This document shows positions 1,607-21,948 of a stretch of 21,948 nt of DNA, one piece after another. The stretch lies in the IMG/VR virus record IMGVR_UViG_2913147268_000003. One strand, 5' to 3'. The notes beneath the pieces are model-generated. The model ran no database searches and was not told the DNA's origin. It worked only from the letters and a program-made list of their open reading frames with translations. The translations under genes and the position numbers were made by a program. Position 1 is the first letter of the stretch, and the number at the start of each line of letters is the position of its first letter. Origin of the DNA: a virus (lineage: Duplodnaviria > Heunggongvirae > Uroviricota > Caudoviricetes).

Positions 1607-1614
1607 GTATTACC

Positions 1615-1761: not shown

Positions 1762-1764
1762 TCT

Positions 1765-2007: not shown

Positions 2008-2091
2008 GTGGTTATCCCCAGCGGCAAATCGAATACACCACCAGCGCCACCGCCATCGCAATTCCTACCGTTGTTAATGCTTCAGGCCAGG

Positions 2092-2600: not shown

Positions 2601-2610
2601 GTGTTACTCC

Positions 2611-2874: not shown

Positions 2875-2875
2875 A

Positions 2876-3286: not shown

Positions 3287-3287
3287 C

Positions 3288-4913: not shown

Positions 4914-4923
4914 GTGGTCCCTT

Positions 4924-5505: not shown

Positions 5506-5510
5506 GATAT

Positions 5511-5693: not shown

Positions 5694-5887
5694 TATTATC
5701 TCCCGTATGCTTTACGCAGAAATAAGCAGGCAATATGCATGTAATTTTCACCGTATTGTGCAATAAGGCAGGCGGTCTTGTGTGATGCCATATTCTTTAT
5801 AAAAGTCACAATAAAGCCTCCTGTGGATTAAGGTTGTAACAATCCCCGGCGATAAAACCGCAATAAACGTTCAGGGCATATTTGTTG

Positions 5888-6253: not shown

Positions 6254-6381
6254 GGTTTCCTCAGCTGACTTATATGTTCTGCTATATAGCGAGTCTCAGA
6301 AGTGTTTTCATATTAAGACTGTTTCCGCAATGATTGATAAAAATGTTCGCATGTACCTTGAGGGGCGAAGCGGCGATTATG

Positions 6382-6885
6382 TCACCATTGGTATTGGTTC
6401 TTCCGTAGAAGAGCTTCGCGAGATAAGGGGCAAACTTGTTGAGATGCGTCATGGTGTTGCTGCTCCTCACTTTTTGGTTGCTCCGGAGGAGTAACCTCAC
6501 CAGTTAACAGCCACATCGCATCGCAGCCAAGAATATTTGCCAGTGGGATAAGCATACTGATAGTTGGTTCATACTCTCCGCTCTCCCACTGGATGATAAT
6601 TTCTTCATCGAGATCGAGCAGCCTGGCGAGTTCGGCGGTTGTTAAGCCGCAGGCTTCGCGTTGGGTGCGAAGACGGTTGTTGATTGCAGAATTTTTGTTC
6701 TGTAAAAGCATTGCTGACGATAGCTTTCTGGATATGCTATTTGTCATATCCCATGCCAGTCCTGCGCATGACTCTATATCGCTAGAGAGCGTAGCATCAG
6801 GTGTTGCTTTTGCTATTAGTGTAATGAGGCTGCCGAGGTTTTTCAGTTCTTCGAGACAGTCAAGAGTTGTAGCTTTATTGATCAT
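6382..6885 (-). CDS. XRE-family helix-turn-helix protein with unknown N-terminal domain
   Basis: 167 aa, ATG at 6883-6885 with GAGGT upstream. The C-terminal half has a classic XRE HTH (GLTTAELARLLDLDEEIIIQWESGEYEPTISMLIPLANILGCDAMWLLTG). It is the first gene leftward of the operator-like region next to the repressor. Confidence 0.6.
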   Translation of the reverse strand: MINKATTLDCLEELKNLGSLITLIAKATPDATLSSDIESCAGLAWDMTNSISRKLSSAMLLQNKNSAINNRLRTQREACGLTTAELARLLDLDEEIIIQWESGEYEPTISMLIPLANILGCDAMWLLTGEVTPPEQPKSEEQQHHDASQQVCPLSREALLRKNQYQW

Positions 6886-6988
6886 GAGATGATACCTCAG
6901 TTACGAACTTTGTTTTATGGTAACTAAGGTATCAAGGTGTGGCAAGTGATTTTTGATACTTTGGTTTCTTTTTGTGTTTTGTTTCTGG
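6886..6988. promoter_or_regulatory. Candidate left operator/promoter region
   Basis: 103 bp intergenic region between the repressor and the first leftward gene. It contains TTGATACTTTGG (6953-6964), identical to a motif repeated at 7668-7742, and possible leftward -35/-10 hexamers (TTGCCA / TACCAT on the minus strand). Confidence 0.4.
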
Positions 6989-7645
6989 TCAGAAAATATC
7001 CCACCTGGCATCAACCACAACACCTACTATTTCGCAATCATTGTCCATTTCTATGATTGGATATTGTGGATTAAGGGGCTTTAGAAACGCCTTTCCCATG
7101 TCAGAAATATATTTTTTGAATGTTGCTTCATTGGTAGATTTTTTTCTGGCGATGACGTAACACCCTGAAAAAACTTCTTTATCTGGGTTGACAAGGATCG
7201 ACATTCCTTCAGGAAATGTTATTCCTACGGGCGAAGTCATTGAGTCTCCGTGCACTTCCAGCCAGAACCCCCTCTCACCAGCGTATTTTACAGAATGCCT
7301 CCAATTATCCTGATCATACATGTTGTAGTCATCACCAGAAGTTGCGAATAATCCTGCCTGAACCCAGTTAATTACAGGGTAAGAGTGTGCTGTGTCTCTC
7401 TGTGGGCAGCTCTTAACATTATTTTCCCAATGCTTATCTTTTTCATCTCCGTTCTGAAGCCACTGCGGTGAACACCGCAGTGCAGCTGCAACTTTAAAAA
7501 GGGTGTCACCGTTGAAACTTTTTGTAAGGCCTTGCTCGGCTTTACTGATTGCAACTCTGGTGATCCCAGCTTTTTTAGCCAACGCATCTTGTGTTAACCC
7601 AGCTTTTTGCCGTGCGTTGATGAGACGTTCACCTAAAGACTTCAT
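6989..7645 (-). CDS. cI: CI-type phage repressor (N-terminal HTH, C-terminal S24 LexA-like peptidase)
   Basis: ATG at 7643-7645 preceded by GAGGAG. N-terminal HTH (LTQDALAKKAGITRVAISKAEQG), a candidate Ala-Gly autocleavage site (VQAGLF), the S24 Ser motif (GDSM) and a downstream Lys (IARKK). The track ORF from 7720 is a non-supported N-terminal extension. Confidence 0.85.
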   Translation of the reverse strand: MKSLGERLINARQKAGLTQDALAKKAGITRVAISKAEQGLTKSFNGDTLFKVAAALRCSPQWLQNGDEKDKHWENNVKSCPQRDTAHSYPVINWVQAGLFATSGDDYNMYDQDNWRHSVKYAGERGFWLEVHGDSMTSPVGITFPEGMSILVNPDKEVFSGCYVIARKKSTNEATFKKYISDMGKAFLKPLNPQYPIIEMDNDCEIVGVVVDARWDIF

Positions 7646-7760
7646 TTTTCTTCTCCTCTCATGGCTGTTGATACTAAAGTAACAGAATTTCTTGATACTT
7701 TGGATTCCTGTGGTTAACATCGTTGAATAACAAAGTATCTGGTGTGAGACTAAAGAATGA
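7646..7760. promoter_or_regulatory. Candidate right operator/promoter region
   Basis: Three copies of a 12 bp motif: TTGATACTAAAG (7668-7679), TTGATACTTTGG (7692-7703) and an inverted copy CAAAGTATCTGG (7731-7742). A candidate rightward promoter is TTGATA (7692-7697), 17 bp spacer, TAACAT (7715-7720). Confidence 0.5.
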
Positions 7761-7984
7761 CCCTTTATGAAATATTAAAAATTCAATTTAAAACCAATGC
7801 CGCTATTGGTCGCAGGTTCCCAAAGAAAGGAAGGCCTCGTGGCAGTCAAGGTGTTGGAAAGTGGAAAACGCGAGGTGTTCCGGAGGATGTTGCCATTCTT
7901 TGTCATCTGGATCCGAGCATTCCATATACACACCCAAGTCTAGCGAATACAGAAGATGACAAGCCCACAGGAGACCAACAATGA
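7757..7984 (+). CDS. Questionable small basic ORF in the rightward leader (75 aa)
   Basis: The only long ORF between the candidate rightward promoter and the first large rightward gene; its stop overlaps the next ATG (ATGA). Weak ribosome-binding site, low-complexity basic sequence and no recognisable Cro-like HTH. Confidence 0.2.
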   Translation: MTLYEILKIQFKTNAAIGRRFPKKGRPRGSQGVGKWKTRGVPEDVAILCHLDPSIPYTHPSLANTEDDKPTGDQQ

Positions 7985-8688
7985 ACACCGCAATTTTTAA
8001 CGGCAAAGCATCCATGACCAGCGTTGAGATCGCAGAGCTGGTGGGAAGCCGACCAGATAGTGTTAAGAGAACTATTGAAACACTGGCTAAAAAGGGAATC
8101 ATCCAATTTCCACAGACTGTGGAAATTGAGAATAAACAATCACTTGGGCCTCGCCGATTTTCTAGCGCGTATGTATTCGAAGGTGAACGAGGTAAGCGCG
8201 ACAGCATCATTGTCGTCGCACAGCTCTGTCCTGAATTCACAGCTCGCCTGGTAGATCGCTGGCGCGAACTGGAAGAACAGATCCGTAAGCCAATGAGCGA
8301 AATCGAAATGGTTGCCGCGATGGCTCTTGAAGCCGTTCGCCAACAGAAACGGATCACTCAGGTGGAAGAAAAAGTCAGCCACGTTGCTGAAACAGTCGAG
8401 CAAATTAAAAAGGGCACTATTCGTGAGGGCTATGCCGGATATCGCCAACTGAAAGCAAAAACCGGTTTGTCAGATGATAAATGCCGCAATCTGGTGAACG
8501 CCTATCAAATTCCTACAGACACACATGAGTTCATGACGCCGGACGGATTGTTGTCACGTCGCGCAATTGTTGCTGTGGAACCGTTTATGGCTGCTTTTTA
8601 TCGGGTTATGGAGGAAGCAGAACCGCGAGGGACTCGCTGGTATCACCCGAAAATGGGGTTATTTCAGGTTATTGGTTGGCAGCGGTGA
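7981..8688 (+). CDS. Phage regulatory protein, Rha/antirepressor-like N-terminal DNA-binding domain
   Basis: 235 aa with AGGAGA upstream of the ATG. The N-terminus (NGKASMTSVEIAELVGSRPDSVKRTIETLAKKGI) resembles the Rha-family motif; a coiled-coil-like middle region follows. Confidence 0.55.
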   Translation: MNTAIFNGKASMTSVEIAELVGSRPDSVKRTIETLAKKGIIQFPQTVEIENKQSLGPRRFSSAYVFEGERGKRDSIIVVAQLCPEFTARLVDRWRELEEQIRKPMSEIEMVAAMALEAVRQQKRITQVEEKVSHVAETVEQIKKGTIREGYAGYRQLKAKTGLSDDKCRNLVNAYQIPTDTHEFMTPDGLLSRRAIVAVEPFMAAFYRVMEEAEPRGTRWYHPKMGLFQVIGWQR

Positions 8689-8711
8689 AAAAAAGCCGGG
8701 AGTAACCCGGC
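8688..8711. terminator. GC hairpin flanked by an A-tract, intrinsic-terminator-like
   Basis: AAAAAAA then GCCGGG-agtaa-CCCGGC immediately after the stop of 7981..8688. The T-tract is present only on the minus-strand reading, so orientation and function are ambiguous. Confidence 0.3.
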
Positions 8712-8796
8712 TCACTCAACATCAATAACGGGGAGCTGTTTCGCATAAAACGGCTCCGAAACATCCAAGAACAGTTCTAAAGATATCAGCAGCTAT

Positions 8797-9459
8797 ATGA
8801 TCATTTCAAGACCAAATATTGATTCTGCAATTTCGGGACGTTACACTGTCTCCGCACCTTATAAAGCGGGTGCCGGGATTGGCGTCCTGAAATTGTCAAC
8901 GGCGATGTATGACGCGCCAGCGTCTTTTTTATCGTCCGCATTTGCTCACATCCAGATTATGGTGGGCTGGGCGGGGGCACCGAAAGGTGCGCCGGTCTCC
9001 GTTGACGCCGGTTACGCCAACCCCGTCCAGTTCACCACCAGTGAAATTGGCGTTTCCGGTGGTGGAAGTTTTTCACTGTCAACGGAGGCTGCCATCATGG
9101 CTACTGTCCTAACTTCCCCATTCCTAAAAATCGAAGTCGTCAACGGCAAGGCCGTTATTTTCTCCCTGCATGTTGCCTGCCATTTCAAGCGCATGCACCA
9201 GAACATCGTTGACAAAATCGAGTATCTGAACTGCTCACGCGAGTTTTTTACCCGCAATTTCATACCGGGTACTTATCACATCTACGGTGACTCCCTGCGT
9301 GGTTATTACATCACCCTTGATGGTCTGATGATGCTTCAGCTTGGGTTAAGTCTGCGCACAATGCGGTACTACGAGAGCTGTATTGAAGCATTCCATGAGG
9401 CTGAAACCGTCCAGGGTCACTCCGCGTTCCGTCGTAATCAACGGGAGGTGCACCTATGA
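8797..9459 (+). CDS. Rha-family phage regulatory protein (Rha-like domain in the C-terminal half)
   Basis: 220 aa ORF. The C-terminal half (KIEVVNGKAVIFSLHVACHFKRMHQNIVDKIEYL...GYYITLDGLMMLQLGLS) matches the Rha pattern. An internal ATG at 9098 with a GGAGG site is an alternative start. The N-terminal region is paralogous to that of 9456..10307. Confidence 0.6.
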   Translation: MIISRPNIDSAISGRYTVSAPYKAGAGIGVLKLSTAMYDAPASFLSSAFAHIQIMVGWAGAPKGAPVSVDAGYANPVQFTTSEIGVSGGGSFSLSTEAAIMATVLTSPFLKIEVVNGKAVIFSLHVACHFKRMHQNIVDKIEYLNCSREFFTRNFIPGTYHIYGDSLRGYYITLDGLMMLQLGLSLRTMRYYESCIEAFHEAETVQGHSAFRRNQREVHL

Positions 9460-10307
9460 TCCGCCACCAGCATATTGATTCTGCAATTCCGGGACGTTAC
9501 ACTGCTCAGGCACCTTATAAAGCGGGTGCCGGGCGTGGAAACCCGAAATTCAATATAGAGCACAACCGCGCTCATGCGGTTTTTTCGTGTCATGAGCATC
9601 GTTACACCCAAATTATGGTGGGGCGTGCAGGGCCAACTTCGGTTGGGCCGGGTTCTATGTTGACCGGTATTTCCACCCCTGTACGTCTCACCACCTATAT
9701 GGTCGTGGAAAGCCTTGGTGGTGAGTTCATTGAATTCAACATAGGGGCTGTCACCATGACTACTCTCCCAACCCAATCTCACCCTGAAATCACGATTATC
9801 AATGGTCGCGTTGTCACCACATCTCTTGCAGTAGCTAATTACTTTACTAAACGGCATGAGCGGGTTTTAGATAGAATTAGAAACCTCGAATGTTCCGCTG
9901 AATTTACTGAACACAATTTTGTGTTAAGTGAATACACCGACGCATCAGGCCGCAAACTCCCTTGTTACCAAATCACCCGCGACGGTTTTGCGTTTCTTGC
10001 CATGGGCTTCACTGGTAAACGTGCTGCCCAGTTCAAAGAGGCATACATCAACGCCTTTAACCTGATGGAGAAGAGTTTATCAGGTGCCGATGCGTCTGAT
10101 ATGTCAGCTGTCGCACGAAACGCCAGAGGCGTATACCTGCATTTGCGTGAAATCCATCAAATCTGGACAAGCCAGCTTTATCCAATGCTTAAGGCCGTTG
10201 AATCTCCGCTGGCTAGCAAACTGTACGACCGTGTTGGTGATGCTGTTTTTGGCGCTGCACTTGTTGATTCCAGGCTGAATGGTTCTGACAAGGAGGTTCG
10301 CCCATGA
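9456..10307 (+). CDS. Rha-family phage regulatory protein
   Basis: 283 aa with GGGAGGTG upstream; the start overlaps the previous stop. Clear Rha-like domain (EITIINGRVVTTSLAVANYFTKRHERVLDRIRNLE...CYQITRDGFAFLAMGFTGKRAAQFKEAYINAFNLME). Confidence 0.7.
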   Translation: MIRHQHIDSAIPGRYTAQAPYKAGAGRGNPKFNIEHNRAHAVFSCHEHRYTQIMVGRAGPTSVGPGSMLTGISTPVRLTTYMVVESLGGEFIEFNIGAVTMTTLPTQSHPEITIINGRVVTTSLAVANYFTKRHERVLDRIRNLECSAEFTEHNFVLSEYTDASGRKLPCYQITRDGFAFLAMGFTGKRAAQFKEAYINAFNLMEKSLSGADASDMSAVARNARGVYLHLREIHQIWTSQLYPMLKAVESPLASKLYDRVGDAVFGAALVDSRLNGSDKEVRP

Positions 10308-10498
10308 TTAGTTACGAAATCATCATCTCCACTACGGAATACAGAAACGATGTATCAGTTCGCACGGATGTATCTGTCTGGCACCGTCGCTATAAATCCA
10401 GAAAAACAGCGGAACTGAAAGCGGCAGAGATGTGTGAAACCATCTCAATGAAAGGTAGCCCGGTTAAATACGTAACTACGGCGGAGGTGCGTCCATGA
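10304..10498 (+). CDS. Hypothetical small phage protein (64 aa)
   Basis: ATGA overlap with the upstream stop; stop/start overlap with the next gene. Confidence 0.4.
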   Translation: MISYEIIISTTEYRNDVSVRTDVSVWHRRYKSRKTAELKAAEMCETISMKGSPVKYVTTAEVRP

Positions 10499-10719
10499 TC
10501 CGCCACATCGTTAATTCCCTGTATCACCGATACAACCGTTGCCCCCGTGTGGGGCAGTGGTTCGCCACCAGCAACGGTCACGTTCTGCGGGTTTGCCTAG
10601 TCAACGCTGAAAGCCAGAAAGTCGTGTGCGAACTACAGGGGCGTAGCTACACCATCAGTTACCCTCTGGCGGTATTTCTGTCTGGAAAAATGTTTAAGCG
10701 TCTGGGAGGTGTGGCGTGA
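10495..10719 (+). CDS. Hypothetical small phage protein (74 aa)
   Basis: Start context (GCGGAGGTGCGTCCATGATCCGCCAC) is nearly identical to the start context of 9456..10307. Confidence 0.4.
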   Translation: MIRHIVNSLYHRYNRCPRVGQWFATSNGHVLRVCLVNAESQKVVCELQGRSYTISYPLAVFLSGKMFKRLGGVA

Positions 10720-11015
10720 ACTGTTTTCAGTTTGTGTGCGGATGTGCTTTCGATAACCCGATTCAGCGCCTAATTATGTTGCGTGTTTTGATGTCGGGTT
10801 CTTCAGACGGTGAAGGCGAGAGAGTTATTGATCATCAGGTGCTTGCTGATTTCTGCTGTTGTTCTAAGCAAGCGATATTCAGGGAAACCCTGGCACTGGA
10901 AAGAGCTGGTTATCTTCATATCCGAAAAATTGCAACGCTTACTATTGATGCAAAAGCCAGACTACAACCTGCGCGTGGCTACACAATTCTCATGCCGCGG
11001 AAGGAGGTTGTATGA
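10716..11015 (+). CDS. Hypothetical protein with possible HTH (99 aa)
   Basis: GTG start overlapping the upstream stop. Lies immediately upstream of the replication initiator; the segment SKQAIFRETLALERAGYL looks HTH-like. Confidence 0.4.
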   Translation: MNCFQFVCGCAFDNPIQRLIMLRVLMSGSSDGEGERVIDHQVLADFCCCSKQAIFRETLALERAGYLHIRKIATLTIDAKARLQPARGYTILMPRKEVV

Positions 11016-11998
11016 GCCGTTACGCCCCCACACCGGAAGTTATGGCTATTGGTCAAATTAATATTTCCGGCAATGTTACACCTGCGAACTGGTGGAAATA
11101 TATTCGACTACCCAGTGGGCGTCCGGATGCGACGGCTATCGCTCTGCTTTCAGAGATCGTTTACTGGTACCGCCCGACAGAGGTCAGGGATGAGCACACC
11201 GGAGCGTTGCTGGGATATCGCAAGCGTTTTCAGGGCGACAAACTGCAAAGAAGCTACCAGGCGTTTGCTGAGCAGTTTGGTTTCGGGAAAAGGGAAACCG
11301 CAGATGCGCTGAAGCGTCTGCGCGATGCAGGGTTTATTACTCTGGATTTACGCACGGTGGAAATGCTCGATGGGGTGAAATGCAGCAATATTTTGTTTGT
11401 CGGGATCAACCCACAGGCAATTGCGGCCATCACCACACCTTCTTCTGTTTCGCCAGAAAGTAACAGCAATAATGCAATCAGCGATACAGCTATTACGTTA
11501 AAACGGAACACCCCCCGACGTCATAACGGAACAGGGGATACGCCGAATGTTGATACAAATACAGAGATTACTACAGAGATTACAACGGAGACTAAAAACA
11601 CTATTGATGCATCCGCTGACGCGTCTGCGCGTTCTGCCCGACAGGAATATTCACCGGAATTTGAACAGGCCTGGCAGGAATATCCCAAACGTGCTGGTGG
11701 CAATTCCAAGTCAGCAGCCTTCAAAGCCTGGAAAGCCCGTATCAGGGAGGGAATAAAACCGGAGACCATGCTTGATGGCGTGAAGCGGTATGCCGCCTGG
11801 GTACGTGCTACAGGAAATACCGGCACACAGTTCGTGAAGCAGGCTGCGACGTTCTTTGGACCCGATCGTCACTTCGAAGATTACTGGCAACAGCCAGCCG
11901 CTCACGGAGGTGGGCGACAGCGACAGGTCGATGTCCTGGCTGGCCTGGGAGCCATGTCTGACAAATTCGGTAAATCCAGTAACAAATTGACATTCTGA
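11012..11998 (+). CDS. Phage replication initiation protein (O-like / replisome organiser)
   Basis: 328 aa with AAGGAGG upstream. It has an N-terminal DNA-binding-like domain, a low-complexity linker whose DNA carries tandem iterons, and a C-terminal domain, and it sits directly upstream of the loader and helicase genes. Confidence 0.65.
   Translation: MSRYAPTPEVMAIGQINISGNVTPANWWKYIRLPSGRPDATAIALLSEIVYWYRPTEVRDEHTGALLGYRKRFQGDKLQRSYQAFAEQFGFGKRETADALKRLRDAGFITLDLRTVEMLDGVKCSNILFVGINPQAIAAITTPSSVSPESNSNNAISDTAITLKRNTPRRHNGTGDTPNVDTNTEITTEITTETKNTIDASADASARSARQEYSPEFEQAWQEYPKRAGGNSKSAAFKAWKARIREGIKPETMLDGVKRYAAWVRATGNTGTQFVKQAATFFGPDRHFEDYWQQPAAHGGGRQRQVDVLAGLGAMSDKFGKSSNKLTF
11561..11596. 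repeat. Tandem 12 bp iteron-like repeats inside the replication initiator gene
   Basis: ACAGAGATTACT / ACAGAGATTACA / ACGGAGACTAAA in direct tandem, encoding TEITTEITTETK in the linker. Confidence 0.5.
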
Positions 11999-12008
11999 GG
12001 TGACAGCG

Positions 12009-12908
12009 ATGATGACGATTGACCAACGTGAGAAACAAACAAGACTACAGGCGCGAATGGATGAGTTACGGGCAGAAATGGATGAGTTACGGGCAGAGAT
12101 TGCATTTGCTCAGAAGGGCGAAAAGCCATGGCCTTATCGTTCCTGCCTGATGCGTGAAGGTCGCGGATATTGCGAAAAACACGGTAAATATCGTACGCAT
12201 ATACTGGTGTGGATCGATCGTAATGGCGAGGACAGAGAAAAAATTTCATGCTGCCCTGACTGCTTGATCGCTGAGGCCAGTGATTTGACCATGGAACTGT
12301 CGTCCCTCAAGGCGGAAGAACTGACTGATAACGCCGGAATTGCTCTGCGTTTTCGGGACTGCGAGTTTGATAATTATCTGGAGGTTAATCCTGACGCAGC
12401 CAGAAATCTTGCGGCCTGTCGCCGCTATGCGGAGAACTGGCCAGATATGCTGGAGAACGGTACCAGTCTTGTTATGACCGGCAGTTGCGGTACCGGGAAA
12501 AATCATCTGGCGGTATCAATGGCAAAACACATCATCCGTAACTATCTGGCCAGTGTGGAGATCACCGACGTGATGCGCCTTACCCGGGCTGTGAAAAACT
12601 GCTGGCGGAATGACAGTGAAAAAACAGCGGATGACGTCATTGAGCATTATGCGTCACTGGATTTGCTGATTGTCGACGAAGTCGGCGTTCAGTTTGGCAG
12701 TGCGGCTGAAATGGCCATTTTGCAGGAAATTATCAATGCCCGGTATGAGGGTATTTTGCCAACTATCCTGATCAGCAACCTTTCACCGGAAGAATTGTGG
12801 GCGTTCATCAGTCCCCGGATTGCCGACAGGATCACCGATGGCGGGCGCAACTGGTTGTCGTTTAACTGGCCCAGCTACCGTTCTCGTATCGGAGGTGTTG
12901 CCGCATGA
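12009..12908 (+). CDS. DnaC-like helicase loader (IstB-type AAA+ ATPase)
   Basis: ATG at 12009 with GAGGTGA upstream. Walker A (GSCGTGKNHLA) and Walker B (LLIVDEVG) motifs. The N-terminal extension has a Cys cluster (C-x9-C ... CCPDC) and a tandem repeat. Confidence 0.8.
   Translation: MMTIDQREKQTRLQARMDELRAEMDELRAEIAFAQKGEKPWPYRSCLMREGRGYCEKHGKYRTHILVWIDRNGEDREKISCCPDCLIAEASDLTMELSSLKAEELTDNAGIALRFRDCEFDNYLEVNPDAARNLAACRRYAENWPDMLENGTSLVMTGSCGTGKNHLAVSMAKHIIRNYLASVEITDVMRLTRAVKNCWRNDSEKTADDVIEHYASLDLLIVDEVGVQFGSAAEMAILQEIINARYEGILPTILISNLSPEELWAFISPRIADRITDGGRNWLSFNWPSYRSRIGGVAA
12057..12098. repeat. 21 bp tandem duplication within the DnaC-like gene
   Basis: ATGGATGAGTTACGGGCAGAA followed by ATGGATGAGTTACGGGCAGAG, encoding MDELRAE twice in frame. 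Confidence 0.85.
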
Positions 12909-14305
12909 CCAGCCAGAACACCCCGGCATGGCGTAACGATGACCTGGAAGGCGCTGTCATCGGTGCGTTTTTTCTGCGTGGGGCCGATCCGGAAGTGATG
13001 GATATTCTGGCCACACTTCCGGCGGATGTATTTTTTGTGCGTCAGTACCGGGATATTTACGCGGGGATTTGCAGACAGGCTCGCATATCCGGCGTCATTG
13101 ACCCCGTACTGCTGTGCAATGAGATGCCGGAACTTGCCCCGGTGATTACCGACACCGGACGCAAAACCTGGGTGAAGTCTTCACTGGAGCACTATGTCGC
13201 AGCGTTGCGGCGCAATGCCGCACTGCGTGATGCAGAAAAAACACTGACTGAAGCATTACAGAATTTACGTGATGCGTATACCTGTGAAGCAGCCGAGGAT
13301 GCCCTGAAGGATGCGCAGAACATGATGGCCTCACTGTCGACCGGAAAGGGCGTCATTCAGCCGGTTCACATTGATGATGTCCTTCCGGAAGTGGTCGACC
13401 GTGTTGAATGCCGCAATCAGGGACTGGAGAAATCCAGGGCGCTGATGACCGGTATTGATGAACTGGACGCAAAAACGGGCGGTATGGAGCCCGGAGACCT
13501 GGTATTCATTGCCGCCCGTCCTTCGATGGGGAAAACCGAACTTGCGCTGGACATCATCGACAAGGTGACTGAGCAGGGGCATGGCGTGCTTCTGTTCACC
13601 ATGGAGATGGCGAACATCCAGATTGGTGAACGTATGGTGTCTGCTGCCGGTGGAATGCCGGTATCCCGTCTTAAGTCTGTTGCCCGTTTTGAAGATGAAG
13701 ACTGGGCGCGTTTCTCGCAGGGCGTGGGACGAATGACGGGGCGTAATATCTGGATGGTGGACCAGGCAAACCTGACCATTGATGAGATATGTGCAACCAC
13801 GAAGCACCACCGGATGAAGCATCCGGAAACGGCGCTGGTTGTGGTCGATTACCTCGGCCTGATTAAAACCCGCAGCACGGGGCGTCACGACCTTGCTGTG
13901 GGGGAAATCTCAAAGGGACTTAAAAGCCTGGCAAAATCCGGCGGTTTTCCGCTGATTGCTCTGAGCCAGCTCTCCCGTGGCGTGGAATCCAGACCCAATA
14001 AACGCCCAATGAACTCGGACCTGAAAAACTCCGGGGAAATCGAGGCGGATGCCGACATCATTCTGATGCTTTACAGGGAGGAGGTATACAACCCGGAAAC
14101 TCAGGCCAGAGGCATAGCAGAAATCAACATCACGAAACAGCGTAATGGCACGCTCGGGACCATTTACCGGCGTTTTCATAACGGACATTTTCTGCCTGTG
14201 GACCAGGAGAGTGCCCGGGTTCTTTCCACACCAATGCAACAGCCCCAGCCGCGCAGATACAGCAACAAACGAACTGACAGCAGTAAGATGGAGCGTTTCT
14301 TTTGA
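12905..14305 (+). CDS. Replicative DNA helicase, DnaB-like
   Basis: 466 aa with GGAGGTG upstream. Walker A (ARPSMGKTELAL) and other DnaB-like motifs (VVDYLGLI, SQLSRGVESR, ITKQRNG). Confidence 0.85.
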   Translation: MTSQNTPAWRNDDLEGAVIGAFFLRGADPEVMDILATLPADVFFVRQYRDIYAGICRQARISGVIDPVLLCNEMPELAPVITDTGRKTWVKSSLEHYVAALRRNAALRDAEKTLTEALQNLRDAYTCEAAEDALKDAQNMMASLSTGKGVIQPVHIDDVLPEVVDRVECRNQGLEKSRALMTGIDELDAKTGGMEPGDLVFIAARPSMGKTELALDIIDKVTEQGHGVLLFTMEMANIQIGERMVSAAGGMPVSRLKSVARFEDEDWARFSQGVGRMTGRNIWMVDQANLTIDEICATTKHHRMKHPETALVVVDYLGLIKTRSTGRHDLAVGEISKGLKSLAKSGGFPLIALSQLSRGVESRPNKRPMNSDLKNSGEIEADADIILMLYREEVYNPETQARGIAEINITKQRNGTLGTIYRRFHNGHFLPVDQESARVLSTPMQQPQPRRYSNKRTDSSKMERFF

Positions 14306-14316
14306 ACAACCAGACA

Positions 14317-14559
14317 ATGACTTTTACCCCTGAGCAATTACGTAAACAGGCACAGGAAATGTTGCGGCAGGCGGAACAACTGGAAAAAACAGGTGTAACA
14401 AAAGATGCCATTCGTCGGGATATGGTGCCAGCGCTCAGGGAACTGATGCAGGCAAAACACCGTGCACAAAAAGCAGTGGATGAGCTGGTGGATTGTGTGG
14501 CAGAGCTGGAAACCAGAGTTGGTAAGTTTGAAAAACTGGTGCAGGAGGTACTGCGCTGA
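14317..14559 (+). CDS. Hypothetical coiled-coil phage protein (about 80 aa)
   Basis: First ATG (MTFTPEQLRKQ...) after the helicase stop; the track's 14302 start is a TTG. Its stop overlaps the next ATG. Confidence 0.4.
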   Translation: MTFTPEQLRKQAQEMLRQAEQLEKTGVTKDAIRRDMVPALRELMQAKHRAQKAVDELVDCVAELETRVGKFEKLVQEVLR

Positions 14560-14927
14560 TGCGTGATATGTACGAAGTTTTAGATCGTTGGGGGGCCTGG
14601 GCTGCAGCAGATAACAGTGGTGTGGACTGGCAGCCGATAGCAGCAGGCTTCAAGGGGCTTTTACCACACGGTAAAAAGTCACGTCTCCAGTGTGATGATG
14701 ACGAAGGTATCATGATAGACGGTTGTGTGGCTCGGTTGCGAAAGTATAAACCCGAAGAGTATGAGTTGATCATTGCTCACTTTGTTATTGGTATCTCATT
14801 ACGCGCTATTGCTAAAAAACGGAAATGTTCAGATGGAACAATACGGAAAGAGATGCAAACAGCAATGGGGTTTATTGATGGCTGCTTGTCATTTTTCATT
14901 TACTACAATGACTTAAGTTCTATGTAA
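14559..14927 (+). CDS. Putative late-gene antitermination protein Q-like
   Basis: 122 aa with GGAGGT upstream. The pattern DRWGAWAA...IAAGFKGLLP...RLQCDDDEG...CVARLRKY...AHFVIGISLRAIAKKRKCSDGTIRK matches my recollection of the small prophage Q-like antiterminator family. The last 20 codons are AT-rich and atypical. Confidence 0.45.
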   Translation: MRDMYEVLDRWGAWAAADNSGVDWQPIAAGFKGLLPHGKKSRLQCDDDEGIMIDGCVARLRKYKPEEYELIIAHFVIGISLRAIAKKRKCSDGTIRKEMQTAMGFIDGCLSFFIYYNDLSSM

Positions 14928-14990
14928 AATCGTTCTACTTTCCCAACTTTTATGTGTATATAATACCAGGATAAAGTAACGGAGAATCTT

Positions 14991-16031
14991 GTGAACATTC
15001 AGGCAGTAGACATTTTTTGTGGTGCGGGGGGCTTAACTTTTGGGCTAAAAAAAGCCGGGATTGAGGTTTCTCATGGTATTGATATTGATGAATCCTGCCG
15101 TTTTGCTATTGAGAGCAATAATCCTTTAACGCAGTTCATTAATCAGTCAGTTACAGAACTGCAATCCTGCGATGTGTCTGCTATGTTCAAGGAAGGAAAT
15201 ATTAGATTGCTTGCTGGATGTGCTCCTTGCCAACCGTTTTCCAAGTATCGTAATCCAAATAGCCGTAAAGACGATACAAAGTGGCGTTTGTTATATGAGT
15301 TTCAAAGGCTTGTAAGTGATGTCATGCCAGAGCTTGTGACGATGGAGAATGTTCCTCAACTTAGAAACCATAAGGTTTTTGAAGGGTTTGTTAGTGCATT
15401 AAAGACTCTTGGATATCATTTGTGGTACGACGTTGTAAGATGTTCTGAGTATGGCTTACCTCAAAATAGACGTAGATTAATTCTAATTGGTTCCCAATTG
15501 GGGCCGATCAGCCTTGATCAAAAAAAAGTTAGCCGTAAAGTTACTGTTAAGGATGCTATTGGTAGGTTGCCAAAAGTAGGGGCAGGTGAGAAGCTGGAAA
15601 GCGATCCCTTGCATCGTTCGCCTAAATTGATGGATATCAATCTTAAACGAATCATGCATTCTTTACCTGGTGGTACGTGGGATGACTGGCCTGAAGAAAT
15701 TAGAGCAGACTGTCATAAAAAGAATTCAGGTGCTACCTATAAAAGCGTTTATGGACGGATGGTTTGGGACGATACTAGCCCTACGATAACTACCCAGTGT
15801 TATGGATATGGAAATGGACGATTTGGCCATCCTGAGCAAAATCGCGCCATAACTTTGCGTGAAGCTGCGATTTTGCAATCCTTTCCAATGGATTATAAAT
15901 TCCTTGACAAGGAGACGCCTTTTTCATTCCAAAAATTGGGGACAATGATTGGAAATGCTGTTCCCCCTATAATTGGTCAGATAATAGGGGAAACATTTAT
16001 CAGACATGTTGAGGGGATAAATACCCGTTAG
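14991..16031 (+). CDS. DNA (cytosine-5)-methyltransferase
   Basis: 346 aa, GTG start with GGAGAA upstream. Canonical C5-MTase motifs: motif I (DIFCGAGG), motif IV (GCAPCQPFS), motif VI (TMENVPQL), motif VIII (QNRRRLILIG) and motif X (GNAVPP). Confidence 0.9.
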   Translation: MNIQAVDIFCGAGGLTFGLKKAGIEVSHGIDIDESCRFAIESNNPLTQFINQSVTELQSCDVSAMFKEGNIRLLAGCAPCQPFSKYRNPNSRKDDTKWRLLYEFQRLVSDVMPELVTMENVPQLRNHKVFEGFVSALKTLGYHLWYDVVRCSEYGLPQNRRRLILIGSQLGPISLDQKKVSRKVTVKDAIGRLPKVGAGEKLESDPLHRSPKLMDINLKRIMHSLPGGTWDDWPEEIRADCHKKNSGATYKSVYGRMVWDDTSPTITTQCYGYGNGRFGHPEQNRAITLREAAILQSFPMDYKFLDKETPFSFQKLGTMIGNAVPPIIGQIIGETFIRHVEGINTR

Positions 16032-16689
16032 AGGTAATATAATTTTCTGTTGAGTTGATTAATAAACGCAAATATAGATCAATTCTTTCTGACCTCGATT
16101 TGACTTCTTCTAAAGGGTCTATTTGACCTTTTTTAGAAAAGCTGGTACTTCCATGTGCCAGCTCATTTCTGATATCTTTAAGTAAATCTAAGTCAACACC
16201 ATTTCTACACTCTGGTGAGTTTGCAACAGTTATTCCGTAAGCTTGTGTTATTTTGTGCAATACAGACTTGCAAACATTACCATTGAATTCTTTACGTATG
16301 TTTAATGAGGCTGAAATGATCCTTTTAGATATATCGGAACCAATTTTTTGATAAAGAGATTTTCCCGATTCATTATCTGAAATGATACGGTGCAAGATAT
16401 TTACTTGGAATTTCTCCCTGAGTGATGCGTAATTTACTTCATTATCTTGCAAATGGTCATAAATTGACTCAATGCATCCTCTGGCAGTGTTTTCAACCTG
16501 ATTGTACAGCATCATGTGCACGGATGATTTTAAAATGTTAACCCTAAGGGTATTTGATTCTATTTCATCTTTATGCGTTTGCTGATCTAACTGCTGAGTC
16601 TGAGCCTCTAAAGATGACGCAAGAGAAAGCAATTCCATAATATCTCTTGCTCTTTCTTCGTATTCATCTCTTAAATCAATCAAACTCAT
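16000..16689 (-). CDS. HEPN-domain protein (putative RNase effector)
   Basis: 229 aa with its ATG 2 nt after the stop of the DUF262 gene. C-terminal R-x4-H motif (IRNELAHG, residues 174-179) typical of HEPN, preceded by a coiled-coil-like N-terminus. Confidence 0.55.
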   Translation of the reverse strand: MSLIDLRDEYEERARDIMELLSLASSLEAQTQQLDQQTHKDEIESNTLRVNILKSSVHMMLYNQVENTARGCIESIYDHLQDNEVNYASLREKFQVNILHRIISDNESGKSLYQKIGSDISKRIISASLNIRKEFNGNVCKSVLHKITQAYGITVANSPECRNGVDLDLLKDIRNELAHGSTSFSKKGQIDPLEEVKSRSERIDLYLRLLINSTENYITSNGYLSPQHV

Positions 16690-16691
16690 AG

Positions 16692-17849
16692 TTACATTCC
16701 TAATAATTTATCTTTGACATAAAATATTCTGTTTTTGAGTTGGCTGGTGTTGTTGGCACTATCAGCAGTAACTATGGTTTCAAATTCCTCCCCAAACAGC
16801 CAGTCTCCTACAGGAATAACCGGAGCCTGTAGATGTGGATTGGCTTTTAAGGCAAGAGCAGTTCCCACTGCTATGGCTTCGTATCTAGCACGGGGGGTGG
16901 TTTTGCTTGTTGGTGTCTTTTTAAACCCCATAGGGAAATGAGCATCTACAAAAGCAAGCATGCTTTCAAAATCATGTTTAAATTTGTCTACATCTTGTTG
17001 TGTGACCCTTTCGGCCTGAACATTAAGATAATTGTCAATAAAAGGAGCGACATAACCCTTATAATTTTCTAAATCATTTAAGTATGCAAAAAATCTCAAA
17101 ACTAACTCACGATGATCGCCATTCGAACGTTTCCGGTCTGATAATGGAGCTAGACTAGCGAAAAGTGGATTTGTTGAGCAAGGAGTCACAACATCCCTAT
17201 AGAAAATTGAAGTGGCCGCATCTGAACCATGTCTAACCTCCATCGCTTCCAGTCTCTTAACACCTGAATTTATTCTTTCGAATAAATCTCTTCTATGTTG
17301 CTCCTCAACATCACCTTTCAATTCAATAAATCTTAGTGATGCCCTTAAAAATCGCCTCTGGCGGCTAGCCAAAAGATCTGAAAATTTGAAGCCCTCTAAA
17401 CTTTTGAGTTCTTTTAAGTCTTTCAATTCAAACTGATTGTTCCAAAAGTAGTAAATTGAGCGAATCCTTTGTGAACCGTCAATAATTTCTACACGACCAT
17501 CCAACTCAGGATCTTCATTAAATACGTCGGAGATGTAGAGGTACGGGATTGGAAAATCTAATAATATACTTTCGATGAATCGAGAGGCTGTTTTGATATC
17601 CCATTTGTAATCGCGTTGATAATCAGGAATAAAAAGTTCGTTTTTGTCAGTTTCAAGATTATTGCCATACTTTTGTACAATTAATTCAACGGTCCATTCA
17701 CGTACGTTGTATCCAATATTTCTCTGAGCAAGCCTAATCTCGTTGTCGGCAGAAGTGACCAAGGCTGCAATTTCAGCTTTTTTTCTATTTTTCGCGTTTT
17801 CATCTTGAATCTGAGCAAGCTCTTCTTTGAGTTCTTTGAGTGTGGTCAT
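16692..17849 (-). CDS. DUF262 (ParB-like nuclease superfamily) domain protein
   Basis: 385 aa with AAGGAA upstream. N-terminal DUF262 signature motifs (IPDYQRDYKWD and IIDGSQRIRSI); the C-terminal roughly 180 aa are unassigned. Confidence 0.7.
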   Translation of the reverse strand: MTTLKELKEELAQIQDENAKNRKKAEIAALVTSADNEIRLAQRNIGYNVREWTVELIVQKYGNNLETDKNELFIPDYQRDYKWDIKTASRFIESILLDFPIPYLYISDVFNEDPELDGRVEIIDGSQRIRSIYYFWNNQFELKDLKELKSLEGFKFSDLLASRQRRFLRASLRFIELKGDVEEQHRRDLFERINSGVKRLEAMEVRHGSDAATSIFYRDVVTPCSTNPLFASLAPLSDRKRSNGDHRELVLRFFAYLNDLENYKGYVAPFIDNYLNVQAERVTQQDVDKFKHDFESMLAFVDAHFPMGFKKTPTSKTTPRARYEAIAVGTALALKANPHLQAPVIPVGDWLFGEEFETIVTADSANNTSQLKNRIFYVKDKLLGM

Positions 17850-17955
17850 ATCACTGTTCCTTTAATTGGAGTTGGAAATAGATTGTAAGAAAACTATAAC
17901 GCGTACGCAAAAAATATTATATCGTGTTAAGAGTGGTTACTACGCCACACAGCTT

Positions 17956-17979
17956 AAACCCGCCGCCAGGCGGTTTTTT
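17956..17979 (+). terminator. Intrinsic terminator (plus-strand sense)
   Basis: AAA then CCGCC-gcca-GGCGG followed by TTTTTT. No plus-strand gene lies immediately upstream, so it appears orphaned. Confidence 0.5.
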
Positions 17980-18102
17980 GTGTCCGAAAAACGGCGCAGT
18001 ACGTTAAACGTGCTGGTGGTTGCGAATACCGGTCTTTCAGCTTGCTGGCTTTTCAGACAAGAGTTATTGGTATGTCACGTTAACCAGAAAAGGGAAAAAG
18101 AC

Positions 18103-18300
18103 ATGCTAAAACAGCAGGATATGACCGAAACTGCCAGAGTGGTGTTTAATGAATTAAGCGTCACCGAACCGGCGACCGTCGGGGAAATTGCGCAGAATAC
18201 TTACCTTTCACGCGAACGCTGCCAGCTAATACTGACCCAGCTTGTTATGGCGGGTCTGGCAGATTATCAGTTCGGTTGTTACAGACGCCTTCCGCAGTGA
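18103..18300 (+). CDS. Small putative winged-helix regulator (65 aa)
   Basis: ATG at 18103 (MLKQQDMTETARVVFNELSVTEPATVGEIAQNTYLSRERCQLILTQLVMAGLADYQ...) resembles small FaeA/PapI-like winged-helix proteins; the track's longer ORF from 17866 is unsupported. Confidence 0.4.
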   Translation: MLKQQDMTETARVVFNELSVTEPATVGEIAQNTYLSRERCQLILTQLVMAGLADYQFGCYRRLPQ

Positions 18301-18407
18301 AGGCTTTTTTATTTGTGGTAATGGGCGGCTGGTGGGTGTTAGCGGCACCTGCCAGCCATCTGCTCATGCGTTGGGGTCACAAGCAAACCTCAGGCCCATC
18401 TGCTTTG

Positions 18408-18624
18408 ATCCGCGGTCGCATCATCCAGGTGCCGTCAAACTATGACCCGGAAAAACGCACGTACAGTGGTATCTGGGACGGCAGTCTGAAACCGGCATAC
18501 AGCAACAACCCGGCCTGGTGCCTGTGGGACATGCTGACTCACCCGCGCTACGGCATGGGAAAACGTCTGGGGCGGCGGATGTGGACAAGTGGGCGCTGTA
18601 TGCCATCGGGCAGTACTGCGACCA
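18408..18624 (+). pseudogene. Tail-tip host-specificity (J-like) fragment, plus-strand copy
   Basis: Encodes [55 protein letters not shown], then frameshifts by loss of one G. It is an inverted copy (about 99%) of 20019..20236. Confidence 0.6.
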
Positions 18625-20236
18625 TGCCTGATATCCGCAATCCGCTTTTCCGAGAACCAGAACTCAAACTGTACCGTCGGGTCATAAACGGCAAGATGTG
18701 GCGTTGCGGTTATCTGAAAATAGCCCGGCGTCAGCTCAATCCGCGACGGTGCTGCCGGTGCGGTAATCCGGAAGGTGGTGGTGGCAGGTTCACCCTGCTG
18801 GCCATAGCTGTTTATCGCCCGCACCGTCAGGGTGTATTCCCCGAGCGGCAGGCCGCTGAAACGGTGCTCCGTGTCTGCGGTGATGGCGGTGGTCACCAGT
18901 CTGGCATCCGTTCCCTTACCACTGGTCAGGCGCAGACTGAAGCACACACCCTTCACCACCCGCGGCGTGTCCCATTTCGCCTGCGCCAGATACTGGCCGT
19001 CAGCTGCGCTCACCTCCACCGTCAGGTGCTGCACTGCCGGTGGGATGACGCTGTTCAGGGAACCTGACTGCGGCTCAAAGCGGGCACCGTTATCCACGAT
19101 GGCTTCTTTTTCCGGTACGTGCTGCACCGCCGTGATGGCAAAGGTGCCGTCCGTGTTTTCCCGGATGGAGACACAGCGGAACAGGCGACGGCGCAGTGAC
19201 GGCAGGGAGAGTCCCCACACCCCGTATGTCTCCACACCATCAGGCAGGGTACTGACCTGTATCCGGTCCGGCGCGGGGTGTGCGGTGATGTCCACACTCA
19301 CCGGCTTACCGCTGCCGTTAATCAGGTTCACCGCCGATGTACCTGTCTCCGGCAGGGTAACCTCACGGTCCAGCGTCAGGGTGCGGGTGGCAGCATCAAT
19401 GGACAGGACACGTCCGCCGGTCAGGGTCCCGGCATAGTCATTATCACAGATTTCAATAATGTCACCGGGTGTGTGCCGCAGCCCCTGAGACCCGAGCGTG
19501 AAATCCACCGTCTGCGTTTCCAGCAGTTCGGTCTTTATCACCCACAGTCCGGCACGGTGGGCCTGACCGCGGCTGGTACAGCCGAACGCGTCCATCTTCA
19601 GCAGGTTGCGTCCGTAGCGCAGTATGGCTTCCGGGTCTTCCACCAGTTCCGTGGAGGTCTGCCAGCCGTTCTGCGGGTCGGTGTAATTCACCTCCACCGC
19701 CGTGTGCCGGTCCTTCAGGGCACTGAAGCTGTAGCGGAATCCCACGCCGTTATCATCCACCACCACATCGCTGTTGGTGTACGGCCACACCACATCCGAC
19801 GGGCGGTCCTGAACGAACGTCAGCGTCTGACCGTTCCATACCGGCATACAGCGCATCGCAGAGCAGAAATCACTGAGAACGTCCCACGCCTTACGCTGTT
19901 GTGCCAGGTACGCATTAAAGGTCATCCGCGGCTCGGTCCCCCCGAAACCATCCGGGACCGTCTGGTCGCAGTACTGCCCGATGGCATACAGCGCCCACTT
20001 GTCCACATCCGCCGCCCCTGGTCGCAGTACTGCCCGATGGCATACAGCGCCCACTTGTCCACATCCGCCGCCCCCAGACGTTTTCCCATGCCGTAGCGCG
20101 GGTGAGTCAGCATGTCCCACAGACACCAGGCCGGGTTGTTGCTGTATGCCGGTTTCAGACTGCCGTCCCAGATACCACTATACGTGCGTTTTTCCGGGTC
20201 ATAGTTTGACGGCACCTGGATGATGCGACCGCGGAT
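18625..20236 (-). pseudogene. Tail-tip host-specificity protein (lambda J-like) internal fragment, frameshifted
   Basis: Minus-strand translation gives a long J-like stretch ([74 protein letters not shown] ... [44 protein letters not shown]) matching the central part of lambda J as recalled. It lacks both ends and is broken by a 56 bp tandem duplication. Confidence 0.8.
19962..20073. repeat. Perfect 2 x 56 bp tandem duplication inside the J-like remnant
   Basis: CTGGTCGCAGTACTGCCCGATGGCATACAGCGCCCACTTGTCCACATCCGCCGCCC occurs twice in direct tandem (19962-20017 and 20018-20073). 56 is not a multiple of 3, so it frameshifts the J reading frame. Confidence 0.85.
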
Positions 20237-20527
20237 GACGAAAACTCCGGTGAATTTTTTGTTCAGGTCTGGGGAAATGGAGCCAACTTCGAAAACACGA
20301 TTTTGCGCCGTTCATACGAACGGCAGGGGATCCCCTGCCCATGGCGTTACTACAACGATCGCGATGTACGCACAATCGTTGAGCTGGGGAAAGCCATAGA
20401 CTTCGATGCCAGAACGGCTATTCCATTCGAAGGTGAGCGCCATAATGCACTTGATGACGCCCGTTACCAGGCAAAATACGTTTCAGTTATCTGGCAAAAA
20501 CTGATCCCGAATCAGGCTGATTTTTAA
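20237..20527 (+). pseudogene. 5'-truncated DEDDh-type 3'-5' exonuclease fragment
   Basis: The C-terminal H-x4-D motif (GERHNALDDARYQAKY) and an upstream GNGANFENTIL segment fit Exo III and Exo II motifs of DnaQ-like exonucleases; the Exo I (DxE) region is absent. The frame runs directly into the J inverted repeat, and the only in-frame start is a TTG at 20303. Confidence 0.45.
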
Positions 20528-20591
20528 TGTTCAACCCCGGTCGTTGCCCACCAGCTATAGTGGCGGCGACCATGATTAGCGAACGACGCTC

Positions 20592-20840
20592 ATGGCAAGA
20601 CTTATTCTGCTCACTGAGTGGGCAAAAGAGGAATTCAGTGAACCGGTCCCAACTCCGAGTACGTTAAGTAAATACGCTAAAGCCGGAATGATATTTCCTC
20701 TCCCCAAAAAAGTTGGAAGACGCTGGCGAGTGGATCCGCAAGCTCGCTTTGTCGGAATGGTAAACAAGCCGGAGGTGATCGCCACAGATCACCCTGCTTT
20801 GAAGAGGATACTGGAAGATGGCGCGCCCGCGAAAATATAA
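20592..20840 (+). CDS. xis: Excisionase (lambda Xis-like)
   Basis: 82 aa immediately upstream of, and overlapping, the integrase gene. The pattern LLTEWAKEEF...AGMIFPLPKKVGRRWRV resembles lambda/HK022 Xis (LTLQEW...RIFPPPVKDGREY) as recalled. Confidence 0.6.
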   Translation: MARLILLTEWAKEEFSEPVPTPSTLSKYAKAGMIFPLPKKVGRRWRVDPQARFVGMVNKPEVIATDHPALKRILEDGAPAKI

Positions 20841-21948
20841 AACCAATGTTCCGGGATTATCTCCGTATTTTGACAAAAGAAATAACAAAGTTTACTGGCG
20901 TTACAGGCATCCCATAACAGGCAAAAATCACGGTCTCGGCAGTATTGACCAGAAACTGGCAGAAACTATTGCAGCAGAAGCGAACAGCCGTCTTGCCCGG
21001 CAGCAAATGGAACAAATGCTCAGTCTGCAGGAGAAAATTATTAGTGATACCGGCGGTTCATCAACCGTTACCATTTTTCTGAATAATTACAGAAAAATTC
21101 AACAGGAAAGATATGAAAACGGCGAGATCAAACTCAACACGCTGAAACAGAAAGCGGCCCCTCTCAGGGTATTTGATGAACGTTTTGGCACCAGACCGTT
21201 AGATGCCATAACCGTAAAAGATGTGGTATCAGTACTGGAAGAGTACAAGGCCAGAGGACATAACAGAATGGGACAAATTTTCAGGAAGGTACTGATCGAT
21301 GTTTTCCGGGAAGCTCAGCAAACGGGCGATGTCCCGCCAGGCTTTAACCCTGCAGAATCGGCAAAAAAACCGCAGGTGCGGATATCAAGACAGCGACTGA
21401 CTTTTGATGAGTGGATGATGATTTATAACGCAGCGGAAAAGGATGGTTACTTTTTACAGCGCGGTATGCTGCTGGCACTGATGACAGGCCAGCGCCTTTC
21501 AGATATTTGCAAAATGCAATTTTCGGATATCCGGGATGGTTATCTTCATGTCGAACAGCAAAAAACAGGAACCCGGATTGCCATCCCTCTGGCTCTGCGT
21601 TGCGATAAATTAAATCTCACCCTAGATGATGTGGTGTCATCCTGCCGCGATTGCGTTCTTAGTCCGTGGCTATTGCACCACCATCACGCGAAAGGGACAG
21701 CTAAGCGCGGCGGGATGGTTAAGCCAGCAACATTAACCGTTGCATTTAAAAAAGCCCGGGATTCTGTGGATTACAACTGGCGTGCTAATGGCACCCCACC
21801 CTCTTTCCATGAGCAGAGATCTTTATCAGAGCGATTGTTCAGAGAGCAGGGGGTTGATACCAAAATTTTGCTGGGCCATTCGAATCAAAAAATGACCGAT
21901 ATTTACAACGACGCACGCGGTAAGGAATGGAAAAAACTGGTCATTTGA
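20818..21948 (+). CDS. int: Tyrosine integrase, lambda Int family
   Basis: 376 aa. Similar to lambda Int as recalled: LTFDEWMMIYNAAE, LLALMTGQRLSDICKMQFSDIRDGYLHVEQQKTGTRIAIP, FHEQRSLSERLF, LLGHSNQKMTDIYNDARGKEWKKL with the catalytic Tyr in the DIY region. Stop at 21946-21948. Confidence 0.9.
   Translation: MARPRKYKTNVPGLSPYFDKRNNKVYWRYRHPITGKNHGLGSIDQKLAETIAAEANSRLARQQMEQMLSLQEKIISDTGGSSTVTIFLNNYRKIQQERYENGEIKLNTLKQKAAPLRVFDERFGTRPLDAITVKDVVSVLEEYKARGHNRMGQIFRKVLIDVFREAQQTGDVPPGFNPAESAKKPQVRISRQRLTFDEWMMIYNAAEKDGYFLQRGMLLALMTGQRLSDICKMQFSDIRDGYLHVEQQKTGTRIAIPLALRCDKLNLTLDDVVSSCRDCVLSPWLLHHHHAKGTAKRGGMVKPATLTVAFKKARDSVDYNWRANGTPPSFHEQRSLSERLFREQGVDTKILLGHSNQKMTDIYNDARGKEWKKLVI

Follow-up and report, generated by a model that had tools for sequence, protein, structure and literature searches.

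The window examined here, a stretch of 21,948 nucleotides, contains a 217-bp inverted repeat which is present in the sequence but is an artefact of assembly and concatenation, and not a biological inverted duplication or an invertible segment. Positions 18408-20236 are best explained as three unitigs of a k = 57 short-read de Bruijn assembly which were pasted between two larger contigs, a reading to which we assign a probability of about 0.93. For every piece its identity and its native location are known from direct observation, as are a rule by which the breakpoints fall 56 nt from variant sites and the exact reproduction of the pieces in a simulated graph; the type of assembler and the value of k are what we infer from the sequence. 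Judged by its matches, the window is E. coli ST131-type DNA.

The arms of the inverted repeat, at 18408-18624 on the plus strand and 20019-20236 on the minus strand, align pairwise over 217 and 218 nt, and a repeat of this kind is far above chance expectation. A repeat search returns it as an outer block of 165 nt (18408-18572 / 20072-20236; 99% identity) and an inner block of 56 nt (18569-18624 / 20019-20074; 100%). The arms differ by two substitutions (window positions 18464 and 18521, C versus T in both cases) and by one indel in a run of G, with four G at 18569-18572 in the left arm and five in the right. The first-pass annotation had already placed the repeat at these positions, with two substitutions and one missing G, and this is borne out by the repeat search and the alignment. 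It had also followed a J-like frame on the minus strand down to RIADIR at the left junction; translation agrees, the frame of this J-type tail-tip protein ending in ...SEKRIADIR at 18624/18625. Beside the right arm lies an exact 56-bp tandem duplication (19963-20018 = 20019-20074), the unit of which is the final 56 nt of both arms, and which shifts and breaks the J frame. This second repeat was absent from the earlier description. In J-gene coordinates, taken from R4 gpJ and written below with the prefix J, the arms cover nt 712-929 and the middle piece nt 874-2267.

Segments of the window, with the content of each and the evidence by which it was identified
Segment	Position	Strand	Content	Evidence
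Contig A	1-18407		Left 18.4 kb of the lambdoid prophage P1, from int to the small gene upstream of an N6/N4 methyltransferase	100% match; R4 and AZ146 annotation
Contig A, last 56 nt	18352-18407		Probable k-1 overlap into a repeat node; start of the 540-nt exact P1/P2 repeat	Suffix comparison
Probable unitig u1 ("left arm")	18408-18624	+	J nt 712-929, P1 allele: C768, C825, four G	217 nt, 100% to P1 gpJ
Probable unitig u2 (middle)	18625-20018	-	J nt 874-2267 reverse-complemented, common to both prophage copies	100% to R4 gpJ
56-mer J874-929, twice in tandem	19963-20074	-	Probable untrimmed k-1 overlap of u3 and u2	Repeat search, alignment
Probable unitig u3 ("right arm")	20019-20236	-	J nt 712-929, other allele: T768, T825, five G	100% to J of R4 and 4/1-1
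Contig B	20237-21948	+	Last 291 nt of the exonuclease gene, excisionase and integrase of P2 at ompW	100% match; 4/1-1 and AZ146 annotation
Contig B, first 56 nt, then P2-specific base	20237-20293	+	56 nt common to other exonuclease alleles; 20293 is A in P2 and C in the others	

The two outer pieces have well-defined native locations. Contig A is found as a single piece with 100% identity in 57 complete E. coli genomes, and all of these matches stop at 18407; according to the annotation of R4 and AZ146, P1 is a lambdoid prophage which adjoins yecE/yecN. Contig B is likewise found as a single, 100% identical piece in many ST131 genomes, where P2 adjoins ompW, and in native ST131 genomes the J gene of P2 is ca. 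38 kb away from the contig B region. The window thus runs from the early region of P1 across a gap of 21.8 kb to 217 nt of P1 J, then through 1.6 kb of J on the opposite strand, and across a gap of 38 kb to the int end of P2. In AZ146 the two prophages are located ~0.5 Mb apart, in inverted relative orientation, with the record origin and the terminus region between them, and a P1-P2 joint such as that in the window would delete this ~0.5-Mb interval. On the map of E. coli K-12 ompW lies at ~1.31 Mb and yecE at ~1.95 Mb, with dif and essential genes in between. Since the ends of the window are the exact stop codons of two integrase genes, its limits were set by a gene-based procedure. The gene for a 65-amino acid protein just before the end of contig A forms, together with the methyltransferase which follows it, a very widespread phage module; a protein look-up of this 65-amino acid protein revealed no contigs ending at 18407.

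Comparison with the J genes of complete genomes reveals that the two arms are different alleles. The left arm is identical at 217/217 nt, the missing G included, to the P1 gpJ which is annotated as "frameshifted" in many complete ST131 genomes (AZ146, THO-003, p4A and R3 among them). In at least eight complete genomes (AZ146, THO-003, p4A, p11A, SCAID, FDAARGOS_1265, R3 and AVS0753) this allele is found on the same strand as the match to window position 18407, at a distance of 21,772-21,786 nt downstream. The missing G is, on the evidence of the many complete genomes which carry it, a real allele. The minus strand of 18625-20236, less one 56-mer, equals R4 gpJ nt 712-2267 with 0 mismatches. 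The three differences between the arms are exactly those which separate two pre-existing native J alleles, and, since the arms are different native alleles, the left arm is not a copy of the right. The left copy had been taken for a second, inverted copy of one J remnant, with the proviso that it might instead prove to be an independent J fragment. The complete-genome J genes identify it as the latter: the left arm is an independent native P1 allele, and the right arm and middle piece belong to the other allele. The J copies of AZ146 P1 and 4/1-1 P2 also differ at J1948 and J2128, and u2 spans both positions with the bases of P1 and R4; hence either the J copies of the source were identical there, as they are in R4, or the assembler popped or merged single-SNP bubbles. 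In one strain ISEcp1 is located inside J.

Each breakpoint is situated exactly 56 nt from a nucleotide which distinguishes the repeat copies. At 18351 P1 and P2 have different bases, after which 540 nt are the same in both; contig A ends at 18407, which is 18351 + 56, and no suffix of contig A longer than 56 nt is present in P2 (the 56-nt match is at L003 15233-15288). Both arms start at J712, 56 nt ahead of the first allele SNP at J768. The alleles differ for the last time in the G5/G4 run at J873-877 and re-converge at J874; the 56-mer which begins there, J874-929, closes both arms at J929. It is with this same 56-mer that the middle piece begins, and it is for this reason that J874-929 appears twice in tandem. 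At its other end u2 stops at J2267, which is J2211 + 56; J2211 varies among the J alleles of E. coli, being C here and T in the type of strain 120899, and at least the next 146 nt are the same in all five alleles sampled. The first base of contig B is 20237, which is 20293 - 56, and at 20293 P2 differs from all five of the other exonuclease alleles compared, three of which are identical to P2 over the preceding 119 nt. The boundaries which fit k-1 = 56, counted as six, are 18407, J712 (twice), J929 (twice), J874, J2267 and 20237.

Unitigs of a compacted de Bruijn graph have prefixes and suffixes of k-1 in common (PMC4910249), and this property, taken with the 56-nt offsets, points to k = 57. 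Offsets of k-1 = 56 nt characterise contigs of de Bruijn graphs, not products of recombination, and the exact 56-nt tandem duplicate is of the length (k-1 nt) expected of graph neighbours which have been pasted untrimmed. The suggestion in the first-pass annotation that the repeat might form a cruciform and act as a recombination hotspot is left with no genomic substrate, because the breakpoints lie at k-1 offsets from variant sites.

A graph was simulated from real sequences, with 57-mers as nodes and with arcs taken from observed 58-mers. The input consisted of the P1 of AZ146, the P2 of 4/1-1 with the R4 J allele, the exonuclease allele of AR_0149 and the J allele of strain 120899, the alternative J and exonuclease alleles from other E. 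coli serving as proxies for extra copies in the source. At k = 57 the unitigs map exactly to 18266-18407, 18408-18624, 18625-20018, 20019-20236 and 20237-20397; u1 emerges as one unitig, u3 as a unitig of 218 nt, and a P2-specific unitig starts at 20237. At k = 55 or 56 each boundary was off by 1-2 nt and the arms were split, and at k = 58 or 59 there was no unitig contained in the window. Unitig boundaries occupy 93 of 94,902 positions (~0.1%), such that six exact coincidences would arise by chance with a probability of ~1e-18. Our first graph model, which had 56-mer nodes, was rejected; it broke both arms in two at the 56-mer which separates their SNPs, a break that disappeared with 57-mer nodes and 58-mer arcs. 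Velvet is an assembler which uses a graph with arcs derived from reads, and in which contigs overlap by k-1.

The window very probably arose in the following manner. The source would be an E. coli ST131-type genome with two lambdoid prophages, P1 at yecE and P2 at ompW, possessing near-identical J genes. Through this near-identity, J would be divided in the graph: the interval J712-929 would form a bubble with one branch per allele (the two "arms"), and J874-2267 a single collapsed node common to both copies. The assembler presumably behaved in a Velvet-like manner, with 57-mer nodes, read-derived arcs and neighbours overlapping by k-1 = 56 nt. The contigs would then have been written end to end in the order A, u1, u2, u3, B, with no Ns and with the overlaps untrimmed. 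With the P1 allele pasted forward, and the common node and the other allele in reverse, the result would be an apparent 217-bp inverted repeat around 1.4 kb. Of the pieces, u3 and u2 would be true graph neighbours, whose untrimmed overlap would give rise to the 56-bp tandem duplication. Past 18407 the P1 sequence would run on as CGCAAAAGCGGTATGAGCC..., that is, into the methyltransferase module.

This scheme suggests that the source strain also carried a second copy of the exonuclease gene and a third copy of J with the required alleles. Such exonuclease and J alleles are common in E. coli, and some ST131 genomes carry two to three copies of these segments. A third J copy and a second exonuclease copy were sought together with P1 in one ST131 genome, by a search which reports a single place for each record, and were not located. 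Two further points were counted against the artefact model: the five contigs stand next to one another with their native relative orientation kept, and the remainder of both prophages (21.8 kb of P1, 38 kb of P2) is missing.

The junctions were sought in a number of collections. When the DNA of the whole structure (three junctions and the duplication joint) was used as query, no junction was found in 5426 complete E. coli genomes, nor in INPHARED phages or PLSDB plasmids, in both of which megablast matched the separate pieces only. Exact patterns for the A/u1 and u1/u2 junctions gave 0 matches in IMG/VR viral contigs, and that for u1/u2 gave 0 matches in GTDB representative genomes and JGI metagenome contigs. 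At the protein level, the chimeric J tail across u1/u2 recovered ordinary J fragments only from a collection of 5.8 billion proteins, and an exact look-up of the chimeric J ORF in the gene index, with three candidate starts, found none on record. Neither orientation of the structure is carried by any genome in the collections searched, the 5426 complete E. coli included. Each segment is nonetheless collinear with, and 100% identical to, a native ST131 locus, and it is the junctions that occur nowhere in these collections. The three junctions which do not correspond to graph neighbours, 18624/18625 among them, have 0-1 nt of microhomology.

Three readings were offered in the first-pass annotation (inversion-duplication, invertible segment and assembly chimera), of which only the last is upheld. 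A true inverted duplication, whether through fold-back, template switching or a palindrome-mediated event, inside the 5'-truncated J remnant of a decayed prophage would be expected to leave exactly such a trace, namely inverted copies of 217 bp on either side of 1.4 kb from one and the same gene, and ST131 prophages do recombine through J. We consider it highly improbable. Its arms should be copies of each other, whereas those of the window match two different native alleles, each at 100% identity; J712, which lies exactly 56 nt before the first allele SNP, is the site of both outer junctions, and the flanks there are unrelated, one from P1 and the other from P2; and the inner junction has only 0-1 nt of microhomology. 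Since the flanks derive from prophages ~0.5 Mb apart, the interval across the terminus would have been lost, and this contains essential E. coli genes, so that its deletion would be lethal. Moreover, all of the breakpoints are reproduced by the k = 57 graph, and the junctions are present in no other genome searched. That tail-protein variants are switched here by site-specific inversion, through a segment of the Gin/Pin/Cin type or a shufflon, has a practically negligible probability. An invertible tail-fibre segment does exist in the lambdoid prophages of these strains, being flipped in R3 relative to SCAID and lying beside a recombinase pseudogene, but it lies within the tail-fibre and assembly genes downstream of J and is outside the window. 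No invertase is annotated in those parts of P1 and P2 which are present in the window, the repeat lies mid-gene in J, between non-native junctions, and flipping 18625-20018 restores no reading frame, the translations being broken in either orientation.

Artefacts of another origin, not tied to a k = 57 graph, such as a chimeric or fold-back long read, a scaffolder mis-join or concatenation by a pipeline, have a small probability. A G missing from a homopolymer and palindromic chimeras are typical of long-read errors, and the cutting of the window exactly at two integrase stop codons betrays a gene-based procedure; but the missing G is a real allele in many complete genomes, and a long-read chimera would neither set six breakpoints at 56-nt offsets nor duplicate the k-1-mer at which the alleles re-converge. 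It is extremely doubtful that the source strain harboured a real P1/P2 hybrid or deleted prophage of which only a part, for instance the 56-bp duplication, is artefactual. P1-P2 hybrids formed by recombination in J are known from the complete genomes R3 and SCAID, yet such natural hybrids keep the normal order of tail genes, J and lom; contig A ends at the boundary of a 540-nt repeat and not at a recombination joint, and the outer junctions also follow the 56-nt rule. Two further proposals were rejected. The combination of a simple 21.8-kb deletion in P1 with an inversion between J1 and J2 fails on the grounds that inversion through J keeps the prophages collinear and cannot bring J712 to the end of the exonuclease gene. 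For an origin of the common J712 breakpoint through an insertion sequence, neither IS sequence nor target duplication was seen, and the SNP at J768 explains J712. Lastly, we allow a very low probability that the agreement with k = 57 is misleading and that the window represents a small real element composed of the early region of P1, a head-to-head J palindrome and the int/xis end of P2; recombination between two induced prophages might have yielded it as an excised or amplified product, or it might be an additional copy.

Biologically, the preferred reading of concatenated k = 57 contigs means that this prophage has no inverted duplication, no invertible switch and no cruciform-prone palindrome. 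As a mosaic of contigs from two prophages, the window is an unreliable basis for provirus boundaries, gene calls and inferences about a "hybrid phage"; the 563-amino acid chimeric J ORF and the apparent int-to-int element are cases in point. A constant k-1 offset to allele differences, together with an exact k-1 tandem duplicate, offers a cheap and general flag for artefacts of this kind in genome scans.

Compared with known systems, the window is like de Bruijn unitigs of the Velvet type in that its pieces end k-1 = 56 nt from sites which distinguish repeat copies, in that two alternative branches of 217 and 218 nt cover one J interval, and in that the neighbouring node starts with the same 56-mer. 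It is unlike them in one respect: de Bruijn contigs are normally deposited as separate records or joined by Ns, whereas those of the window are abutted with no spacer and with one overlap untrimmed. Prophage-mediated inversion through J in E. coli resembles the window in the two prophages concerned and in their near-identical J genes. In the J recombinants R3 and SCAID the left arm of P1 is followed by J and then by the lom::ISEc12 of P2, while in other genomes the P1 allele is found at the other locus; the prophages of these recombinants are collinear (tail genes, J, lom) and nothing has been lost. In the window, by contrast, J is arranged head-to-head, contig A abuts J712, J712 abuts the 3' end of the exonuclease gene, and 21.8 kb, 38 kb and ~0.5 Mb are lacking.

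The likeness to fold-back inverted duplications, which also place a unique spacer between inverted arms of the gene from which it comes, is superficial. The arms of a true fold-back derive from one template and run into identical flanks, whereas those of the window are different alleles which end at the same nucleotide against the flanks of unrelated prophages. With the Gin, Cin, Pin and Min tail-fibre segments the window has in common inverted repeats in the tail gene region of a phage; those systems possess short crossover sites, an adjacent serine invertase and alternative C-terminal fibre exons, none of which is present in the window.

The prophages integrated next to yecE (P1, lambdoid) and at ompW (P2) carry near-identical J genes, and complete ST131 genomes differ from one another through recombination between these two genes. 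In the R3 and SCAID genomes the lom::ISEc12 sequence that follows J is the right end of P2. R14, S3, S5, S8, R12 and CUVET17-1136 have over 500 kb of DNA separating the P1 J allele from the early region of P1. Taken together with the J-gene recombinants, this distance implies inversions of approximately 0.5 Mb across the terminus.

Loss of one G from a run of five (J873-877, numbered by nucleotide of the R4 gpJ gene) has made a pseudogene of J, the tail-tip gene of P1, in many of the complete ST131 genomes. At this locus R4 has an allele that is intact, a sign that the J gene of the other prophage may have served as donor in a gene conversion. In one O25:H4 strain (NZ_AP022326.1, 2671926-2675145) ISEcp1 is inserted within J712-2267.

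Coordinates of the features discussed, in the window and in the comparison loci (L001, L003, L004, L006, L007)
Feature	Window	Strand	Comparison loci	Remarks
P1 gpJ of AZ146	18569-18572 (G-run site)		L004 5446-8918	
Two-gene module, P1	16000-17849	minus		considered with 14991-16031 (plus)
65-aa gene and N6/N4 methyltransferase region	18103-18407 and beyond		L001 19311-20117; L003 14983-16381	
Hybrid, R3			L006 2472-9197	order: P1 tail genes, J, lom::ISEc12
Hybrid, SCAID			L007 2459-9184	order: P1 tail genes, J, lom::ISEc12
Tail-fibre segment, R3 vs SCAID			L006 12271-14257 vs L007 12163-14238	

The small 65-aa gene and the N6/N4 methyltransferase gene that follows it form a module common to many lambdoid prophages; the gene collection lists the 65-aa protein in 32,001 blocks. 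The P1 copy of the methyltransferase gene and the next gene (DUF6645/SASA esterase) are fused pseudogene remnants. An exact repeat of 540 nt common to P1 and P2 starts at window position 18352. The two ends of the window, positions 1 and 21948, are exactly the stop codons of the P1 and P2 integrase genes, respectively. The window looks like a provirus call which was extended to the integrases, here across unrelated contigs.

P1 has, in the stretch that separates its Q antiterminator from its lysis region, a pair of genes specifying a DUF262/GmrSD_N protein of 385 amino acids and, after it, a HEPN (MAE_28990-type) nuclease of 229 amino acids; a gene for a Dcm-type cytosine methyltransferase adjoins the pair. 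The DUF262 protein matches PADLOC NsnA (5.6e-46) and also PD-T4-2_A (4.3e-27), and its HEPN partner had no match in PADLOC. The module probably serves as an anti-phage defence cassette carried by the prophage.

Downstream of J, a segment encoding tail fibre and tail-fibre-assembly proteins, absent from the window, lies in opposite orientations in R3 and SCAID, and its neighbour is a truncated "recombinase family protein" pseudogene. This segment is a genuine invertible segment of the Gin/Pin type.
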